The notes beneath the pieces are model-generated. The model saw nothing but the letters and a program-made list of their open reading frames with translations, was not told where the DNA came from and searched no databases. Position numbers and translations under genes: made by a program. Source: a virus (Duplodnaviria > Heunggongvirae > Uroviricota > Caudoviricetes). From it: a stretch of DNA of 64,000 nt. Positions 4,678 to 23,122 of the stretch are shown piece after piece (the first letter of the stretch is position 1; each line of letters begins with the position of its first letter). The stretch lies in IMG/VR virus record IMGVR_UViG_2681813305_000007; one strand, written 5' to 3'.

Positions 4678-5172
4678 TTAAATATTGAAGGCCAGCTCAA
4701 TGTTGCCGCTGGTGTCGCCAGGGCCATTGAAGTAAGCGTTAGTGATCTGGACGGTATTCGAGCCATCAGCGGCGGCAAGGAACGCGCCGAGAGGGCTTGA
4801 GGCGGATGGTGTGGCCACTCGCATGTAGACCGGGCCATGCAGAGCAACGCTGGATGCATCCGCGCCGATGTTTACCGTGACGTAACCACGTACCAGGCAA
4901 TCGCCGGTGAAGTTTTTACCGCTGCCTACCTGCTGGACTTTATCCGGCTGGCTGGCGGTCGGATACGGACGAACATAAATGCCCACCAGCACCGACGCTG
5001 TATCGCTCGCAGCGATTGGCACAAATTTCCCGGAGGAAATCTTGCCGCCAAGGCCGTAAGCGGGGAAAAGGTTGGAGGAGTCCAGCAGTTGAGGTTCAAC
5101 CGTCAGATCCTGCGGACGAGAAATTGCCCCGGCGATGCCCGCTGGCATCCGGTAAAGAAATGTATTACCCAT
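4678..5172 (-). CDS. Head decoration / cement-like protein (DUF2190-like)
   Basis: 164 aa between the scaffold-like and capsid genes; its counterpart in prophage B is the 142-aa ORF 47459..47887. Confidence 0.45.
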   Translation of the reverse strand: MGNTFLYRMPAGIAGAISRPQDLTVEPQLLDSSNLFPAYGLGGKISSGKFVPIAASDTASVLVGIYVRPYPTASQPDKVQQVGSGKNFTGDCLVRGYVTVNIGADASSVALHGPVYMRVATPSASSPLGAFLAAADGSNTVQITNAYFNGPGDTSGNIELAFNI

Positions 5173-5175
5173 TAG

Positions 5176-6378
5176 TTAGCCTCGTTTAGACCAGAATTCC
5201 TGCGCGGCCTGATTCATACCGGCAATGGTTTTAACAGTGGTGGCAGTCTGCGTTTGCAGGCTGTCGACGGTTTTGGTATTGCGGTTTTTCGCCAGCTCAG
5301 AAACAGCCGTGAAAGCCATATCTACCGTGGCTTTTTTCAGCTTGCTGATATCGGCATCACCGACAATAGAGCGAACCAGAGATTGATCGGCAGAGGCAAG
5401 CACCTGGCGCTTGAATGCTGTCGGCTTCGCCTTTTCTGGCAACTGGATGCCTGGCTGAATCAGATCGGCACGATAAGCGGCATCGCCGGTAACCTTACCC
5501 TCCTCTTCCTTTTTCTCCTCTTCATCCTCGGCATCGCCGGTACCAGGAGCAGCTGCCGCAGGCGTGAGTTTGGCCACCGCCTCAATCAGCGCCTTACCCC
5601 ATGCAGGAATTTCTTCCTCACCATCGCCAGTACCAGGCAATGCCGGGCCGGGAAGCGGATTTTGCGGTGCAAGGTTGATGACCACTCCGCCGGGTGTCAT
5701 AGAGGTCGATACATCGTTATCGCCCGTGACATCATCAGGCGGGTTATCAATGAGACTTGCCATTTCGGCAGCGTCCCCGGTTTTACGGGCCTTCAGGAGC
5801 CGGGTAAACCAGTTTTTAGTAGTGCTTGGCATAGAATCCCCTATTGCACAACGGAAACCGGCCCGCCCGTTAGGGACAAGGGCCAGATGGTTAGCGGTAA
5901 TCGCAGATTGCTTTGCGAGACCAGGTGAAATCTGTTCGTAATCGGCGTCGTACCCGCAGCTGACCTCGTCATCACCATCATCAATGGCCTGCAGGGCTTC
6001 CGGGGTTTTGACGATGACATCAGCCAGCAGCAGATCGATTTTATCGTCCGTGCCACGTCGTACGTTCTGGATGTGCCCGTGAGCCAGCTGGCGCCAGTTA
6101 TCAGGGGTAACAAAGATGATCTGCCCGTCAAAATCTCGCGGATGGCCGATAGTGACTGCCATTCCTTCGAATGACGCCATGGCTCGCTCGCTGAACACCT
6201 CTTCTGGCATCCGGCGTACGATGACCTTCCCTCTGTCGTTTGGGACAAGCTCAGGCCGCTCTGTGGCGTCGTACTCCTGCTCACCAGTCCTTGCGATCGG
6301 GACGTCCTTAAACAGGACAGACCCATCAGCAAGTTGAAAGCGGGTATTACCCAGGCGGGTTTTAAAGAAATATTTCAT
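5176..6378 (-). CDS. Prohead scaffold/protease-like protein (DUF2213-like)
   Basis: 400 aa with a conserved N-terminal domain (…[14 protein letters not shown]…) followed by an acidic, low-complexity Pro/Gly/Glu-rich C-terminus typical of scaffolds. It is the same family as 47891..49276. Confidence 0.5.
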
Positions 6379-6429
6379 GGGTTACCTGCTGAATTGCGGG
6401 CATTGAAAAGGCCGCTCATTGGCGGCCTG

Positions 6430-7212
6430 TTATTTTACAGGGTCAGGTATTTGCACTTCCGACCAACACTTGCAGTTAGGCAGGCACCCGGCGTGTCCAG
6501 TCATGCCATCGAGCGTTGGCGGGCTATCCCAGCGCACAAACTTATCTTTCATTTTTCGGTGTGAGGGCCTGGTGCCTGCACCTTCAATGCGCCACCAGTA
6601 TCCCTCTGATCCAACTGCCAGAGCCCGTGCCTGGGTCAGTGCGCCAGTTGCGCGCCCTATCTCTGTGCGGGCTATCATCCGCGCCCTGCTGGCCGCCACG
6701 TCACCGGATTGCATGATCATCTCGTAAAGCTGATCGGGGCGCTCACCATGGATGACAGCCTGTATCGCACGCTCCTGAATTTCCCTGACACGTCCGGCCG
6801 CCTCTAATGGCAGAGACTTCATGTAGCGAATCTGTCGGTAAACGATGTCTTGCGCCACCATGCCGACAGGAGTGTTACCAATCACGTCACGCAGACCAGC
6901 GGATATTTCTTCCGAAACAGAGCGCCACTGATTCCACTCTTCACGCTCCACCTGGGCAAACATCTTTCGACCGACCATTTCGGCCCAGTCGTCGATCACC
7001 CCGGAGTAGTCAACAAGCGATTTAGCAATGCTCTCAGCGCTTGCCTGTGAACCATCGTAGGAACCCGTGACGATTTGATTTATCTGGTCGACTATCGCCA
7101 GTAGGCTTTTCTGATACTGGACCTCCGATCGGCGGCGGAGGGCTGGTTTCAGATTCAGTCTCCTGCCACTGTTTCGCCGCATTCTGGATATCCTCATCGC
7201 TAATTGAAGCAC
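6430..7212 (-). CDS. Minor head protein (phage Mu F / SPP1 gp7-like head morphogenesis)
   Basis: It lies downstream of the portal. The track ORF start overlaps the portal's 3' end by 179 nt, so the real start is probably internal, near 7034 or below. Confidence 0.55.
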   Translation of the reverse strand: MLQLAMRISRMRRNSGRRLNLKPALRRRSEVQYQKSLLAIVDQINQIVTGSYDGSQASAESIAKSLVDYSGVIDDWAEMVGRKMFAQVEREEWNQWRSVSEEISAGLRDVIGNTPVGMVAQDIVYRQIRYMKSLPLEAAGRVREIQERAIQAVIHGERPDQLYEMIMQSGDVAASRARMIARTEIGRATGALTQARALAVGSEGYWWRIEGAGTRPSHRKMKDKFVRWDSPPTLDGMTGHAGCLPNCKCWSEVQIPDPVK

Positions 7213-17728: not shown

Positions 17729-17825
17729 TCGATTAGTCTCGCATAAATAATACATAACGTACTATACACGGTCACAAGAATAATACAAAATGGAAGTTGC
17801 TCAGTAAATACGGAATGTAATAATC
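17729..17825. promoter_or_regulatory. Divergent cI/cro promoter-operator region
   Basis: 97-bp AT-rich intergenic region between divergent repressor genes; the individual operators were not resolved. Confidence 0.4.
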
Positions 17826-18494
17826 ATGGCTATGAAACAGAGATGGCAGGACCTGGCCAAAACCAGGATGAAAGAAGTCGGCATGACTCAAGAACAGCTG
17901 GCAGAGGCGCTCGGCATAACGCAGGGCGGGCTGGGCCATTGGTTAAACGCCAGACGTGAACCGAACTTAGAGGTTATAGCTAAGATTTTTAACATATTGA
18001 AAATGCCCGGCTTCGTAGTAAATGCTGACGGCACTATCAGCGACTCAAGAGCCGATCACAATGTAAGTTTTAATAGCATTAACGAATCCAAGGGAAGCTA
18101 CCCTGTTATAAGCTGGGTTAGCGCTGGAGATTGGATGGAAGCTGTAGAACCGTACCACCGTAGAGCGATAGATCGATGGTATGACACCACCGTTGAATGC
18201 TCTGAGGATTCGTTCTGGTTAGACGTCAGAGGCGATTCCATGACATCACCAGCAGGGCTGAGCATACCGGAAGGGATGGCGATACTTGTCGATCCCCAAG
18301 TGGAAGCAATCAACGGAAAATTGGTTGTAGCGAAACTTGACGGTGACAATGAAGCCACTTTCAAAAAGCTTGTTATCGATGCCGGTCAAAGATTTCTCAA
18401 ACCCCTCAACCCCCAATACCCAATAATCCCTATCAATGGCAATTGCCGTATTATCGGGGTTGTAGTCGACGCAAAAATCACCAACCTCCCATAA
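17826..18494 (+). CDS. cI: CI-type prophage repressor (HTH + LexA-like S24 peptidase domain)
   Basis: The HTH is MTQEQLAEALGITQGGLGHWLN, and the S24 motifs are GDSM (Ser) and KLVVAKL (Lys), so it is predicted to autocleave. Confidence 0.85.
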   Translation: MAMKQRWQDLAKTRMKEVGMTQEQLAEALGITQGGLGHWLNARREPNLEVIAKIFNILKMPGFVVNADGTISDSRADHNVSFNSINESKGSYPVISWVSAGDWMEAVEPYHRRAIDRWYDTTVECSEDSFWLDVRGDSMTSPAGLSIPEGMAILVDPQVEAINGKLVVAKLDGDNEATFKKLVIDAGQRFLKPLNPQYPIIPINGNCRIIGVVVDAKITNLP

Positions 18495-18502
18495 ATTGGC
18501 CG

Positions 18503-18530
18503 CGAAAGCGGCTTTTTTTTTGCCTCCAAC
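18503..18530 (+). terminator. Strong intrinsic terminator after cI
   Basis: GCCGC-GAAA-GCGGC is followed by T9. Confidence 0.7.
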
Positions 18531-18664
18531 ACCCCACCAGAAACTAAAAAACCTTGAAAAACAAAATGATGTGAAATAACACACCAAAATACTCCATTTT
18601 GTATTGATCTTATTTAATACGTTATGTATTGTTTATGCATTAGCGGATTAATGGAGTGCAAAAG

Positions 18665-19695: not shown

Positions 19696-19942
19696 CCAGC
19701 AAACAATGCTCTATCAGGGTGTGCTGATCCCCCGCCCCGTGTTGAACGTGGATCTGCATGTCCTCCCTGATTTTACCGGGCGGGTAGTCTTGCACATCGA
19801 GAACGGGAGGGTGATATGCGACCGCCAGCTGTTCGACGACGAGCACATTTGCACACTGGCCACGTTTATCGAAATGGCCCGCGACGCGGGGTTGAGGATC
19901 GAGGAGGAAGCTGGTGGCACTGACAGCGATACGAATTCCTGA
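19688..19942 (+). CDS. Hypothetical early protein
   Basis: The ATG at 19688 overlaps the previous gene's 3' end; about 84 aa. Confidence 0.4.
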   Translation: MNNQQTMLYQGVLIPRPVLNVDLHVLPDFTGRVVLHIENGRVICDRQLFDDEHICTLATFIEMARDAGLRIEEEAGGTDSDTNS

Positions 19943-20132
19943 GAGGGTTCACCTGCAGGCGCTGCAGGTCCTGCTGCGGTATCGGCGCCGGCGGATATTC
20001 CCGCGGCGAATGCGCCGCACCGGCTACCTCAGCCTGAAGGTTAACCCACGCTGGCGCCTGTTATCGAAAGACGATGGCCGGAACTGGGAAGTTATGAGTC
20101 ATGAAACCTATAACCGGGAGAAAGACAAATGA
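19914..20132 (+). CDS. Hypothetical small basic protein
   Basis: 72 aa, Arg-rich, with overlapping start and stop. Confidence 0.35.
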   Translation: MALTAIRIPERVHLQALQVLLRYRRRRIFPRRMRRTGYLSLKVNPRWRLLSKDDGRNWEVMSHETYNREKDK

Positions 20133-20554
20133 TTGACAACAGAACTGTCAGCGCCATTGACCTGGCGTTGCAAAAGCACCCAACGCCAGTTGGTGATCTG
20201 TTCGCCGCGATCCGCCACGGACGCATGAAGCGGTGCTTCAGCCGGGATACCGCAATTCGTTACCTGGCGTTCTTCATGACCTCCCGAGCTTTTGGGCGTT
20301 CTGGTTTCAAGCAGCGTTATCCGGACGTGCAGGTAATTCATCCACTGAATCCAGAACTGAGTAGCTGGCAACGTGGCGCCGTGACCACTGAGTATTTTAA
20401 CGCCCACCAGCGCACCGTTCGCCGGCTGCGTCGCATCCTCGCCCGCAAAAGAGAAATGCAAAAGTGGTGCAAAAAGTGGGATGCCATGCACGACCGCTAC
20501 GTGAAAGAGCGCGAAGAACTACAGGCCTGTAAGCCTGGAGGGCTGAGTCGATGA
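20129..20554 (+). CDS. Hypothetical basic protein, first gene of a four-gene coupled module
   Basis: 141 aa; its stop overlaps the next start (ATGA at 20551). Confidence 0.45.
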   Translation: MIDNRTVSAIDLALQKHPTPVGDLFAAIRHGRMKRCFSRDTAIRYLAFFMTSRAFGRSGFKQRYPDVQVIHPLNPELSSWQRGAVTTEYFNAHQRTVRRLRRILARKREMQKWCKKWDAMHDRYVKEREELQACKPGGLSR

Positions 20555-20745
20555 TTGCTTACTTACGCATTGTTCTATCGGTGGTGATTGTCGCCAGCGT
20601 TTATGGGCTGTTCGTTCCGATCCTCATTTCGATGAAGGACACGACAGCAGTTATATCCGGTTTTGCCCTGGCGATTCTGACCCCGCCGTGCATCTACGCC
20701 ATTTGTAAGGGTCTTGTGCTTACCGTAACGAAGGAAAAGAAATGA
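20551..20745 (+). CDS. Two-TM membrane miniprotein (64 aa)
   Basis: MIAYLRIVLSVVIVASVYGLFVPILI … ISGFALAILTPPCIYAICKGLVL gives two hydrophobic helices. It is coupled by ATGA at both ends. Confidence 0.45.
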   Translation: MIAYLRIVLSVVIVASVYGLFVPILISMKDTTAVISGFALAILTPPCIYAICKGLVLTVTKEKK

Positions 20746-21569
20746 AAAAAGCAATTATGGCTTCAATTATCGCACTCTCTGCCATCGGCCTTGTTGGTTG
20801 CGATCGAGTTGAGCCCGGCAACGTGGGTATCAAGGTGAATAAGTTGGGCGACGATAAAGGCGTTGGTGAAGTCGTCGGCGTCGGCCGCTACTGGACCGGC
20901 TGGAATACCGAGGTTTATATCTTTCCGACCTTCAAGCAGATGAAAACGTATGAAGACGCTTTCAACTTCCAGATGAGCGATGGAACCACCATCGGCTACC
21001 ACATCGGGGTCGCGTACAAGGTTGATCCGACCAAAGTTACAACCGTTTTCCAGACCTACCGTAAAGGCGTGGACGACATCACCGACACCGACCTGCGGCA
21101 GAAAATTGCTGACGCCCTTAATCGTCTCGCAAGTCGGATGAGCACCGATAAATTCATTGACGGCGGGAAAGCTGAGCTGCTTGAAAACGCACTGAAAGAG
21201 ATCCAGTCCGATATGGGGCCGGTTGGTATCCAGGTGATCAGCCTTTCTTACGTTGGCCGTCCGGAATACCCGCCGACAGTGATCGAAAGCATCAACGCCA
21301 AAGTTACGGCCAACCAGAAGACGCTGCAGCGCGAGCAGGAAGTTAAACAACGTGAAGCTGAAGCCAACATGTTACGAGCCGAAGCCGATGGCCAGGCGGA
21401 TGCAAAGCTGAAATTGGCTGAAGCAGAAGCAAAGTCTATCCAGATCCGTGGGCAGGCCTTGCGTGAGAACCCTGAGGTACTGCAACTGGAGGCCATCAAC
21501 AAATGGAATGGCACCCTGCCCCAGTACATGACCAGCGGAACAAACACCCCTTTTATCCAGGTTAAATGA
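20742..21569 (+). CDS. SPFH/band-7 (prohibitin/HflC-like) lipoprotein
   Basis: It has a lipobox signal (MKKAIMASIIALSAIGLVGC), an SPFH-type domain and a coiled-coil Ala/Glu-rich segment (QREAEANMLRAEADGQADAKLKLAEAEAK). Confidence 0.7.
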   Translation: MKKAIMASIIALSAIGLVGCDRVEPGNVGIKVNKLGDDKGVGEVVGVGRYWTGWNTEVYIFPTFKQMKTYEDAFNFQMSDGTTIGYHIGVAYKVDPTKVTTVFQTYRKGVDDITDTDLRQKIADALNRLASRMSTDKFIDGGKAELLENALKEIQSDMGPVGIQVISLSYVGRPEYPPTVIESINAKVTANQKTLQREQEVKQREAEANMLRAEADGQADAKLKLAEAEAKSIQIRGQALRENPEVLQLEAINKWNGTLPQYMTSGTNTPFIQVK

Positions 21570-22192
21570 TCCACCAGCCCGGCGACAAGCCGGGCACATA
21601 TGAGAGGTTCGCAATGCTTCAGAACATGCTTAACCCGGAACCAACCTCAACAGGGATCCGGTCTGGAAACCGGGTGATTGGCTACTCCGCTGCTATTCGC
21701 CTGCTGGATAACGGTCGCTATGACAAACACCTTGCCGATGGAATGGAAATTCTGGCCTGCATCATGGAAGCGGTAGAAAGCAACTGGATCACGCTCAATA
21801 TCGAAAAAGAGTTGATCCTCTGGCGCTGGTTACTGGCTGCCGTGTTCATCACTGAGGAGCTGGAGAAAAACGGAACTGTCGACGTTCCGAATGATACTGG
21901 CGGTGTTGATACTGCTGTTATCTATTCCAGCAAGCATGGCGCCATTAGCGTCTATCCGGGACCTGAACGCTTTGCACTCGCCAACCATATTGAGCTGGGG
22001 GCAATCGAGAAATATGGGCCAGAGGTTGGCCAGCAGCTGGCGCTGCGGATGTATCAGGACATGGTTATTGCTGACGAAGAATTTGGGTTCAGGTTATCAG
22101 CACTTGGCCGGGAGGGGCTTAACCTCCTCCATGACAGCTTTATCGAACACATCCAGATCGAAGGTGTGCCCGAAGCACCGATTATGCATTGA
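21566..22192 (+). CDS. Hypothetical protein, fourth gene of the coupled module
   Basis: 208 aa; the ATG at 21566 overlaps the SPFH gene's stop. Confidence 0.45.
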   Translation: MIHQPGDKPGTYERFAMLQNMLNPEPTSTGIRSGNRVIGYSAAIRLLDNGRYDKHLADGMEILACIMEAVESNWITLNIEKELILWRWLLAAVFITEELEKNGTVDVPNDTGGVDTAVIYSSKHGAISVYPGPERFALANHIELGAIEKYGPEVGQQLALRMYQDMVIADEEFGFRLSALGREGLNLLHDSFIEHIQIEGVPEAPIMH

Positions 22193-22203
22193 GGGGAATG
22201 ATG

Positions 22204-22908
22204 ATGAATAACTTGATCACTAACAAACCATCCATGACCAGCCTTGAGATCGCCGAGCTGGTAGAAAAACGCCACGACAACGTGAAACGCACGATTGAGA
22301 CCCTGATTATGCGTGGCGTTATTACTTCTCCTCAAATTGAGGAAAAGCCTACTGCCGGGCGCCCCACAACAATTTACGTTTTTGAAAGTGAAGAAGGGAA
22401 GCGTGACAGCATCATTGTGGTCGCGCAACTCAGCCCCGAGTTTACCGCCAGACTGGTAGATCGCTGGAAAGAGCTGGAAGAAGAACGCTCCCGGCCAAAA
22501 TCGCAGGCAGAGCTGATCGCTGAAATGGCCCTGCTGAATGTTGAGCAGGAACGACGCCTCTACCAGGTTGAAGAACAGGTGGAAACCGTAGTCGAAGCTG
22601 TCGAAAACATTAAGCGTGGAAATATGCGGGCCGGGTATGTCGGTTATCGCCAGGTGGTCGCAAAAAGCGGCATGACCGATGCCAAGTGTCGAAACCTTGT
22701 TAACGCATACCGTATCCCAACCGATACACACGAATTCATGACGCCTGATGGTTTACTGTCTCGCCGGGCGATCGTGGAGTTTGAACCTTTTATGAAAGCA
22801 TTCCGCCAAATGATGGCAGAAGCCGAACCACGTGGGACCCGTTGGTATCACCCGAAAATGGGACTCTTTCAGGCTATCGGATGGGAGGAAAAACATTGTG
22901 AAAATTGA
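22204..22908 (+). CDS. Rha-family phage regulatory protein
   Basis: N-terminal …LITNKPSMTSLEIAELVEKRHDNVKRTIETL matches the Rha/pRha domain; a GAGGGGA RBS lies 6 nt upstream. Confidence 0.6.
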   Translation: MNNLITNKPSMTSLEIAELVEKRHDNVKRTIETLIMRGVITSPQIEEKPTAGRPTTIYVFESEEGKRDSIIVVAQLSPEFTARLVDRWKELEEERSRPKSQAELIAEMALLNVEQERRLYQVEEQVETVVEAVENIKRGNMRAGYVGYRQVVAKSGMTDAKCRNLVNAYRIPTDTHEFMTPDGLLSRRAIVEFEPFMKAFRQMMAEAEPRGTRWYHPKMGLFQAIGWEEKHCEN

Positions 22909-23122
22909 GTTTAATGATCAAGGGTCGGTTTCAGTTATCACGGTCACCAGCACCGTGTTTGAGTTCCGCCGGCACAACCGGGCGATTGATGTCGCGTTGT
23001 TCCTCACGCCTGAAATTACCAGCCAGAGCAGCGGTTTTTTCATTATGAAAACGATCTTAAGCGGGAAGACACATCACGCGCTGCGGGCCTATAAACATCT
23101 GATCCGGGAGGCTAAGCAATGA
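22898..23122 (+). CDS. Hypothetical small protein (GTG start)
   Basis: GTG at 22898 with a GGAGGAA RBS 7 nt upstream; 74 aa. Confidence 0.35.
   Translation: MKIEFNDQGSVSVITVTSTVFEFRRHNRAIDVALFLTPEITSQSSGFFIMKTILSGKTHHALRAYKHLIREAKQ

Follow-up and report, generated by a model that had tools for sequence, protein, structure and literature searches.

A two-gene phage cassette encoding an SPFH-domain predicted lipoprotein and its putative two-helix membrane partner

In the SPFH family, HflK/C with FtsH and prohibitin with the m-AAA protease form cage complexes, and HflK/C has historically been tied to lambda lysogeny through CII. A different arrangement is found in the NfeD-SPFH operons (YbbJ-QmcA, YqiJ-YqiK, and the archaeal PH1510-PH1511), where a small membrane-protein gene is located beside an SPFH gene and co-transcribed with it. 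NfeD proteins are recognised by the OB-fold domain at their C-terminus (PF01957), and some also carry a ClpP-type protease domain. Phages also encode SPFH proteins, which have been mentioned in genome papers since 2006. Their role has been called unclear in papers up to 2026 (PMC13239085, PMC7760394, PMC8540360), and our literature search found neither a functional study of a phage SPFH/partner pair nor a description of a conserved pairing.

The locus described here lies in a window of 64,000 nucleotides (the whole stretch of DNA that was analysed), in a region that is 100% identical to published Klebsiella prophages, e.g., MN166823 and MK416019. A previous sequence-only reading had proposed that four genes, with products of 141, 64, 275, and 208 aa, form a translationally coupled module in the early-left operon. 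The four open reading frames are present at the coordinates that it gave, and the 141-aa product, which it had described as basic, has a pI of 10.7. The limits of the conserved unit and one of the translation starts had to be revised (Table 1).

Table 1. Position of the cassette, its two genes and the surrounding features in the window.
Feature	Position	Strand	Remarks
Gene for the 64-aa two-TM miniprotein	20551..20745	+	core gene 1; PHROG 1130, E 1e-28
Gene for the 275-aa SPFH/Band-7 (prohibitin-like) predicted lipoprotein	20742..21569	+	core gene 2; PHROG 200, E 2e-111
Limits of the mobile 2-TM plus SPFH cassette	20521..21602		1082 bp; blastn of the window against L098-L100
Gene for the 141-aa basic protein (PHROG 1886)	20129..20554	+	neighbour, outside the conserved unit
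Gene for the acidic 192-aa protein (PHROG 1515)	21614..22192	+	neighbour, outside the conserved unit; probable start, revised from 21566
Gene for the 72-aa ParE-like toxin-domain protein	19914..20132	+	upstream neighbour; Pfam PF24732 ParE_like, 2.6e-20
OL/PL-like control region	18593..18638	+	inverted copy of the cI/cro operator region
Intrinsic terminator directly after cI	18498..18521	+	GGCCGC-GAAA-GCGGCT, then T8

The SPFH assignment of the 275-aa product, for which a domain search had been suggested, is confirmed by a match of residues 22-208 to Pfam Band_7/SPFH (PF01145; E 8e-32, 111.1 bits against a cutoff of 23.6). Its N-terminus, MKKAIMASIIALSAIGLVGC followed by DR, holds a signal peptide with the lipobox LVGC, Cys20, and an Asp at position +2, in agreement with the pattern used here to recognise lipoproteins (a signal peptide, a lipobox [LVI][ASTVI][GAS]C, and Asp at +2), and in support of the earlier description of this protein as a lipoprotein. 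Asp at +2 is a Lol-avoidance signal. This combination of lipobox and Asp predicts that the protein is retained in the inner membrane as a lipoprotein facing the periplasm. The LxGC-D arrangement is common to all 11 enteric homologues inspected, from lambdoid, Stx, P1-like, and N4-like phages; more distant homologues hold E, S, N, or G at +2, and the protein of the Gram-positive phage K is TM-anchored. The proposed coiled-coil tail is also borne out, as its Ala/Glu/Lys/Gln-rich stretch, from about residue 190 to 250, matches the HflK coiled coil in an alignment. This stretch is followed by a C-terminal motif, K-W-[ND]-G-x-x-P, in which K254, W255, G257, and P260 are invariant in an alignment of 12 lineages.

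When the 12-lineage profile A3 was compared with the PDB, the best matches were prohibitin-2 (1.8e-13; positions 23-254, almost the whole length) and prohibitin-1 (1.4e-11), with HflC, HflK, and QmcA behind them at ~1e-8. For the window protein alone, the closest solved sequence is that of HflK (E 1.5e-3). By these profile scores, the phage protein falls in the prohibitin-like SPFH subfamily. As in the prohibitins of the mitochondrial inner membrane (PHB1/PHB2), its layout comprises an SPFH domain, a coiled coil, and, at the C-terminus, a short conserved segment, and its SPFH domain is predicted to sit on the outer face of an energy-transducing membrane. However, it is encoded by a single gene, with no PHB1/PHB2 heteromer, it is predicted to be anchored by a lipid and lacks an N-terminal TM helix, and it has a dedicated 2-TM partner gene.

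The similarities to HflK/HflC-FtsH of E. coli comprise the SPFH family itself, the periplasm-facing orientation (predicted for the phage protein), and the position of the cassette, which corresponds to that of cIII in the lambda operon. Nevertheless, the phage has one SPFH gene instead of two paralogous subunits, and a signal peptide with a lipobox instead of an N-terminal TM anchor, and its family is also found in virulent phages, where the control of CII is irrelevant. Moreover, its scores are far under the NCBIfam equivalog cutoffs (27.5 against 134.4 bits for TIGR01932, hflC, and 18.9 against 159.4 bits for TIGR01933, hflK), and orthology to HflK or HflC was rejected on these grounds. Databases name phage SPFH proteins 'HflC/HflK family inner membrane lipoprotein' or 'band 7 lipoprotein', and misleading names such as 'serine protease' and '2-polyprenylphenol hydroxylase related flavodoxin oxidoreductase' have also been given to these genes. 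The PHROG labels ('lipoprotein' for PHROG 200 and 'membrane protein' for PHROG 1130) are annotation bins without function.

The 64-aa product consists of two hydrophobic segments (residues 1-29 and 32-51) and a basic C-terminus, which agrees with the two TM helices attributed to it before. It is predicted to adopt an N-in/C-in topology that exposes a short conserved loop, with a consensus of roughly P-x-[LM]-[IV]-S-x-x-[DNS]-[TS], to the periplasm, and in the 64-aa protein this loop reads ISMKDTT; its homologue in phage Pylas carries the annotation '2 TMDs N in C in'. Although the small membrane-protein gene beside an SPFH gene recalls the NfeD-SPFH operons, the 64-aa protein is almost entirely made of its two TM helices and holds no PF01957 domain, and QmcA and YqiK face the cytoplasm, in contrast to the predicted periplasmic orientation of the phage protein. 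The search for an NfeD-like fold in the 64-aa and 141-aa products, which had been put forward as candidates, found none: the former has no Pfam match, and hence none to NfeD, and is too small for an OB fold, and the model of the latter is not OB-like. An NfeD identity for the partners was consequently rejected.

The strongest result of this analysis is the association of the two genes. An ORF of the partner family is located upstream of the SPFH gene in 159 of the 163 distinct SPFH loci. As an independent test, an HMM built from enteric partners only was run on the 15,647 ORFs of a six-frame translation of 171 non-enteric loci, and each of its 55 matches at E<=0.01 was the ORF directly upstream of SPFH (55/55). 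This HMM reaches the partners of Pseudomonas, rV5-like, and Roseobacter phages, and it recognised a single crAss partner out of 75 and no Burkholderia partner; for crAss-like and Burkholderia phages, the pairing is suggested by position, size, topology, and a short motif. A single-sequence search of a library of 1.84 billion proteins placed the partner in at least 26 clusters, a lower bound, given that ORFs this small are easily missed in gene calling and difficult to find by searching. Thus, the partnership that had been proposed for the miniprotein and the SPFH protein holds well beyond this prophage, and the pairing is strongly conserved across phage lineages, including lambdoid, Stx, P1-like (RCS47), N4-like (Pylas), rV5-like (SSE121), Pseudomonas, Burkholderia, Roseobacter (Ruegeria phages), and crAss-like phages. 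Many carriers of the SPFH family are strictly virulent, and phages that infect environmental bacteria are also among them. In RCS47, the pair stands alone between tRNA genes and dnaB.

The conservation of the pair does not extend to the two flanking genes. In closely related Klebsiella prophages (L095-L100), the 141-aa gene is followed by the 208-aa gene and Rha, with no SPFH pair between them. In a blastn comparison with three of these prophages (L098-L100), window positions 19914-20520 correspond to 4786-5392 and positions 21603-22999 to 5411-6810, so that DNA homology breaks at 20520/20521 and 21602/21603, and 18 bp stand in place of the 1082-bp stretch. These breaks at both junctions indicate that the mobile unit is a cassette holding only the 2-TM and SPFH genes, its limits including the last ~11 codons of the 141-aa gene. 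The cassette shows no compositional anomaly when its GC content (0.525) is compared with that of the window (0.521). The distribution of the genes agrees with these limits. Among 68 distinct close neighbourhoods, the 141-aa gene is present in 59, the 208-aa gene in 21, and all four genes together in 21; the 2-TM gene was detected by tblastn in 62, and diverged 2-TM ORFs were found in those inspected of the remaining six. Conversely, the SPFH pair is found without the 141-aa or the 208-aa gene in Fraca-type, Stx, P1-like, N4-like, and other phages. Since the four genes fail to co-occur, the proposal that they constitute one unit falls by the standard that the sequence-only reading had set for itself. 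The genes for the 141-aa and 192/208-aa proteins, whose folds are uninformative, are part of the backbone that received the cassette and are unrelated to it. Judged from these comparisons, only two genes (20551-21569) make up the conserved functional unit, a phage accessory cassette, and there is no four-gene module.

The overlaps between the genes had been taken as three consecutive ATGA junctions implying stoichiometric co-expression. Those at 20551 and 20742 are genuine, each start being preceded by a Shine-Dalgarno sequence (GGAGG and AAGGA, respectively), and the latter, of 4 nt, joins the small membrane-protein gene to the SPFH gene. The third did not stand. The ATG at 21566 has no Shine-Dalgarno sequence upstream, whereas that at 21614 has GAGAGG 6 nt upstream; homologues of the 208-aa gene mostly encode 192 aa, and in relatives without the SPFH pair, sequence homology starts only at 21603. 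The most likely start is 21614, 44 nt past the SPFH stop, and the third overlap therefore most likely arose from choosing the longest ORF. Further ATGA overlaps occur at 20129 (with the upstream ParE-like gene), 23119, and 23328. As the chain extends beyond the four genes, these overlaps mark the whole operon and do not delimit any module.

The location of the cassette in an early-left (PL-type) operon between cI and int, as first described, is supported by the terminator after cI, which separates the cI transcript from the downstream operon, and by the inverted copy of the operator region, where the inverted repeats I1 and I2 pair positions 17741-17794 with 18593-18638 (82-89% complementary). 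A candidate promoter (TTGATC-17-TATTGT, 18604-18632) was assigned by eye and is not listed by the consensus scan. The same scan listed no sigma-70 consensus promoter inside the operon (+ strand, 18.6 to 24.0 kb), nor any upstream of the isolated cassette of RCS47, although it is too crude to exclude one at either place. The cassette would thus belong to a cI-repressible PL-type operon, a position from which early expression is expected after induction or infection, and none in a quiescent lysogen.

Taken as a whole, the reading that we hold to be somewhat probable is that of an SPFH cage which is expressed early, faces the periplasm, and has a 2-TM protein as its partner. The SPFH gene would be translationally coupled to the 2-TM gene through their ATGA overlap, and its product would be exported, lipid-modified at Cys20, and kept in the inner membrane by the Asp at +2, with the SPFH domain and the coiled-coil tail facing the periplasm. 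By analogy with the solved assemblies of prohibitin, HflK/C, and QmcA, copies of the lipoprotein may assemble on the periplasmic side of the inner membrane as a ring or cage. The 2-TM protein would be embedded in the membrane as the partner of this assembly, presumably touching it through the periplasmic loop. The complex could then fence off a membrane patch, providing an early host-takeover function after induction or infection.

The favoured target of such a cage is the FtsH protease, which we put forward tentatively, as both of the other SPFH families that face outward, HflK/C and the prohibitins, partner FtsH-type AAA proteases. However, the phage protein lacks the N-terminal TM helix that embeds HflK/C beside FtsH, which counts against this target. 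The presence of the family in strictly virulent and crAss-like phages makes a CII-type role in the lysis-lysogeny decision inapplicable there, and a role involving FtsH would have to be more general.

The main alternative is superinfection exclusion, in which an early SPFH assembly and its 2-TM partner would alter or occupy the inner-membrane surface and block the translocation of incoming DNA. It would then be comparable to small early membrane proteins such as Imm and Sp of T4 and gp15 of HK97. The predicted site of the phage protein, the periplasmic face of the inner membrane, is where ejection channels form, and the cassette is moron-like and mobile, its partner belonging to the PHROG category 'moron, auxiliary metabolic gene and host takeover'. 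Like exclusion genes, it is found in early gene regions of very different phages, both virulent and temperate, and in PhiSH19 an SPFH gene adjoins an annotated superinfection exclusion gene (PMC3220722). Nevertheless, neither PADLOC nor PHROG revealed homology to a known exclusion or defence family: in PADLOC-DB 2.0, the 141-aa, 64-aa, and 208-aa proteins have no match and the SPFH protein only a negligible one to PbeC (E 0.032, 10.7 bits), so that a known defence system was rejected. In addition, our literature search found no SPFH protein shown to block phage entry, and a lysogen would go unprotected by a repressor-controlled operon in which no internal promoter was detected. This control, together with the occurrence of the family in many strictly virulent phages, somewhat weakens any exclusion or abortive-infection role, and we regard exclusion as unlikely.

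Less likely still is a general membrane scaffold with no specific client, where the cage would stabilise or compartmentalise the inner membrane during the lytic programme and could preserve the proton-motive force, delay premature holin triggering, or blunt membrane-disrupting Abi effectors. SPFH proteins are generic organisers of membrane microdomains, the host range of the family is very broad (including that of phage K), and the SPFH core and the C-terminal motif are conserved while the partner evolves fast, all of which would fit such a role; on the other hand, a co-inherited partner with a conserved periplasmic loop points to a defined complex. The stoichiometric, NfeD/SPFH-like four-gene device first proposed, a membrane-anchored Abi or exclusion system of the prophage, is highly improbable, because its contiguity and co-orientation here and in the 21 neighbourhoods mentioned above, and its first two junctions, are outweighed by neighbours adjacent without the pair, pairs without either neighbour, the probable 44-nt gap before the 208-aa gene, and the lack of an OB fold or a PADLOC match. 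Equally improbable is a lysogenic-conversion lipoprotein acting on the animal host through vesicle release and TLR1/2 stimulation, by analogy with PM0222, a prophage-encoded HflK/C-like SPFH protein reported as a virulence factor of Pasteurella multocida (PMC9872710), because, despite the clinical Klebsiella pneumoniae lineage of the present host, virulent phages and phages of environmental bacteria commonly carry the family, Asp at +2 predicts inner-membrane retention, and the operon would be repressed in the lysogen.

The present comparisons show that the lipoprotein form of SPFH protein found in phages is almost always accompanied by a membrane partner of its own with two helices, and that the pair moves as a self-contained cassette. 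The closest relatives of the lipoprotein are the prohibitins and HflK/C, the two SPFH families that enclose FtsH-type proteases in cages on the outward side of the membrane. A vague annotation is thus turned into a defined two-gene system, for which the hijacking of FtsH, exclusion, and membrane stabilisation can be considered as hypotheses. As its carriers comprise crAss-like gut phages, Stx-converting phages, and prophages of carbapenemase-producing Klebsiella, a function for the system would be broadly relevant. It is conceivable, though speculative, that the pair represents a distinct, ancient, and hitherto undescribed organelle-like device of phages, an SPFH nanocage on the periplasmic side that has a membrane subunit of its own. 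This device would operate early in crAss-like, N4-like, P1-like, and lambdoid infections by capturing a specific inner-membrane machine, be it FtsH or a component for DNA entry or secretion, or by excluding rival phages. If so, the two-gene signature would define a new class of systems for host takeover or exclusion.

The gene for a 64-aa protein with two transmembrane helices (2-TM) and the adjoining gene for a 275-aa SPFH lipoprotein form a translationally coupled cassette within a repressor-controlled early operon; its products are a miniprotein of the inner membrane and a prohibitin-like protein that is exported and bears a lipobox. The sequence-only reading had placed both in a four-gene, NfeD-like defence module, together with a 141-aa gene and a 208-aa gene. 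Its observations stand in part, since ORF calls in the window recover all four genes, the SPFH assignment and the placement in the early-left operon, whereas the reading of these genes as one such module is only partly supported.

Features of the window around the 2-TM/SPFH cassette
Feature	Coordinates	Details
cI	17826-18494	strong intrinsic terminator at its end
Terminator after cI	18498-18513 + T8	intrinsic
OL-like element	18593-18638	inverted copy of the cI/cro operator region, 82-89% complementary
Candidate PL promoter	within 18593-18638	TTGATC-17-TATTGT, read by eye
Predicted PL-type operon	18656 to ~24228
PHROG 340 small protein	19643/19706-19942	probably 78 aa from Met22
ParE-like toxin-domain protein	19914-20132 (+)	72 aa; Pfam PF24732, 2.6e-20
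141-aa gene	20129-20554	basic product, pI 10.7
Cassette segment	20521-21602	1082 bp
2-TM partner gene	20551-20745	64 aa
SPFH gene	20742-21569	275 aa
Fourth gene, as first read	21566-22192	208 aa
Fourth gene, most likely extent	21614-22192	192 aa
Rha/antirepressor-like gene	22198-22908 (+)	Pfam Phage_pRha, 6e-10

The conservation of the neighbourhood separates the pair from its flanking genes. Among 68 distinct neighbourhoods with enough flank, drawn from 80 IMG/VR loci with the closest SPFH relatives, the 2-TM gene lies beside the SPFH gene in 62 (tblastn), the 141-aa gene in 59, and the 208-aa gene in 21, with all four genes together in 21; those inspected among the six loci without a tblastn match carry a diverged 2-TM ORF at the same place. 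The 141-aa protein is only 36-49% identical beside SPFH proteins that are still at least 91% identical, a pattern expected of independent modules. The decisive evidence comes from the Klebsiella prophages L095-L100, where a ParE-like gene is followed by homologues of the 141-aa and 208-aa genes and then by Rha/ORF6N, with neither the 2-TM nor the SPFH gene in between, so that the four do not belong together as one module. This adjacency was hinted at by adjoining locus tags in Klebsiella chromosomes and confirmed in the prophage sequences. In the DNA alignment to L098, window positions 19914-20520 and 21603-22999 correspond to 4786-5392 and 5411-6810, leaving 1082 bp in the window against 18 bp at the same site. 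This segment is the cassette, either inserted in the window prophage or deleted in its relatives; it holds an alternative end of the 141-aa gene (the last ~11 codons), the 2-TM and SPFH genes, and a further 33 nt. The pair also occurs without the 208-aa gene in E. coli phage Fraca and Stx2a phages. In the P1-like Escherichia phage RCS47 (NC_042128, 2236-3280), it is an isolated cassette flanked by tRNA genes, plp/upl, and dnaB; the RCS47 partner has 78 aa and a 20-nt overlap with the SPFH start, and a simple scan found no consensus promoter upstream of the pair.

Of the three ATGA overlaps proposed to link the genes, those at 20551 and 20742 are genuine, each preceded by a Shine-Dalgarno (SD) sequence (GGAGG and AAGGA), while the one at 21566 is doubtful. 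Because ATG 21566 has no SD and ATG 21614 has GAGAGG 6 nt upstream, most homologues have 192 aa (among them the 859 members of a 99%-identical cluster), and homology to relatives without the SPFH pair begins only at 21603, the fourth gene most likely starts at 21614, 44 nt past the SPFH stop. Further four-base overlaps occur at 20129, where the ParE-like stop meets the 141-aa start (ATGA), 23119, and 23328; they are an operon-wide trait and do not delimit a four-gene unit. The ParE-like protein, likewise encoded within the early-left operon, may form a toxin-antitoxin pair with the PHROG 340 protein encoded ahead of it. Downstream, the Rha-like gene most likely starts at ATG 22198 (SD GAGGGG) and thus does not overlap the preceding gene, TTG 22189, the start of the longest ORF, probably not being the true one.

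The early-left placement is upheld by the terminator after cI and the inverted operator copy. Together with the candidate promoter, this copy suggests that the genes downstream form a PL-type operon, which the repressor should silence in the lysogen; a consensus scan found no sigma-70-like promoter inside it on the + strand before 24056.

The lipoprotein assignment was likewise confirmed. The product belongs to the SPFH/Band-7 family (Pfam PF01145, E 8e-32, residues 22-208) and to PHROG 200 'lipoprotein' (2e-111). At its N-terminus it carries a lipoprotein signal peptide, MKKAIMASIIALSAIGLVGC-DR, in which Cys20 is followed by Asp at +2. Under the Lol-avoidance rule, Asp at +2 keeps a lipoprotein in the inner membrane, so a retained, periplasm-facing protein is predicted. 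Taken alone, its closest solved sequence is E. coli HflK (E 1.5e-3, residues 114-230), and its scores fall well short of the cutoffs that NCBIfam sets for HflK and HflC. A profile of SPFH proteins from 12 phage lineages ranks prohibitin-2 and prohibitin-1 first (1.8e-13 to 1e-11, nearly full length), followed by HflC, HflK, and QmcA at ~1e-8, and then erlins. Prohibitins and HflK/C are the SPFH families with domains facing the intermembrane space or periplasm, and both form large cages partnering FtsH-type AAA proteases; QmcA and YqiK are cytoplasm-facing and have NfeD proteins as partners. A C-terminal K-W-[ND]-G-x-x-P motif (K254, W255, G257, and P260 in the window protein), invariant in all 12 lineages, marks a coherent phage SPFH subfamily, and may serve for docking or as a segment that caps the cage. 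Its carriers include enteric, Pseudomonas, Burkholderia, Roseobacter, crAss-like, Caulobacter, and Staphylococcus phages.

The 64-aa partner has hydrophobic segments at 1-29 and 32-51 and a basic C-terminus, and belongs to PHROG 1130 'membrane protein' (1e-28). The suggested NfeD identity was rejected, as the protein is too small for an OB domain and has no Pfam match. The joining of an SPFH gene to the gene of a small membrane protein in one operon is known from NfeD-SPFH; the phage cassette is organized likewise, but with a minimal, non-NfeD partner. Aligned partners share a central motif, approximately P-x-[LM]-[IV]-S-x-x-[DNS]-[TS]-x-x-V-x-x-G, at the turn between the helices.

This pairing extends well beyond enteric prophages. 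SPFH matches (tblastn) occur in 510 phage records, temperate and virulent, including Stx2a-converting, P1-like, N4-like, rV5-like, Felix-O1-like, Pseudomonas, Burkholderia, Caulobacter, Roseobacter, crAss-like, and Staphylococcus K-like phages. In many, a small two-helix ORF lies immediately 5' of the SPFH gene, often overlapping its start by 4-20 nt; such ORFs adjoin it in Pylas (annotated '2 TMDs N in C in'), Pseudomonas Pacha, Burkholderia Maja, Burkholderia prophages, Ruegeria RpAliso, and crAss-like PhiCrAssBcn3; in SSE121, it lies 140 nt upstream, with one ORF intervening. After ~185 loci carrying SPFH genes of the Pseudomonas, Burkholderia, and crAss types were added, a pooled HMM, partly trained on the same sequences, found a partner-family ORF within 500 nt upstream in 159 of 163 distinct SPFH proteins across the whole set of loci. 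In an independent test, an HMM built from enteric partners only was run against 15,647 six-frame ORFs from 171 non-enteric loci; all 55 matches at E<=0.01 (52 from Pseudomonas, SSE121, one Ruegeria, and one crAss) were same-strand ORFs just upstream of the SPFH gene. This HMM detected no homology in most crAss and Burkholderia partners, for which the pairing is supported by where the ORF lies, its size and topology, and the short motif. Caulobacter Karma and phage K are exceptions to the pairing. Immediately upstream of the SPFH gene, a 2-TM ORF is also missing in PaP3-like HHBS55_2 and in phiEa21-4, whose candidate pooled-HMM matches lie ~420-450 nt upstream. In Staphylococcus phage K (KF766114, 1543-2642), from a Gram-positive host, the SPFH homologue is TM-anchored without a lipobox, and the 102-aa ORF abutting its start, with a single N-terminal TM helix and a charged helical tail, is a different kind of partner.

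As a mechanism, the complex would be produced early after induction or infection: the SPFH lipoprotein, presumably kept in the inner membrane by Asp at +2, would assemble on the periplasmic side as a ring or cage, like the solved prohibitin, HflK/C, and QmcA assemblies, with the 2-TM protein as a membrane subunit contacting it through its conserved periplasmic loop. FtsH is the favoured target, albeit tentatively, because the two outward-facing SPFH families partner FtsH-type proteases and the cassette occupies the position in the operon at which lambda has cIII, an FtsH inhibitor. Such a role for phage SPFH proteins has already been speculated upon (PMC4936722, PMC8540360); given the family's presence in virulent and crAss-like phages, it would have to be broader than CII control. 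The chief alternative, itself doubtful, is that the complex excludes superinfecting phages at the inner membrane. PADLOC identified no known defence system in the four genes. A generic membrane-stabilising scaffold comes next and is rather improbable. Also unlikely is a role as a virulence lipoprotein, of the kind reported for PM0222 from a Pasteurella prophage (PMC9872710). The remaining probability falls to explanations not yet imagined.

Several published prophages of Klebsiella pneumoniae (MN166823, MK416019, MK422455, and others) match the region at 100% identity; their records label the SPFH gene 'serine protease' and name the fourth gene '2-polyprenylphenol hydrolase' or 'hydroxylase related flavodoxin oxidoreductase'. 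The names of these two genes (20742-22192) are not borne out by Pfam, NCBIfam, PDB, or fold searches and look like propagated misannotations. Phage SPFH lipoproteins are themselves a known annotation, with a role called unclear up to 2026 (PMC13239085, PMC7760394). What appears to be undescribed in the searched literature is the combination of a conserved pairing with a minimal, non-NfeD 2-TM partner, a mobile cassette shared across distant phages, and a prohibitin-like, periplasm-facing character.
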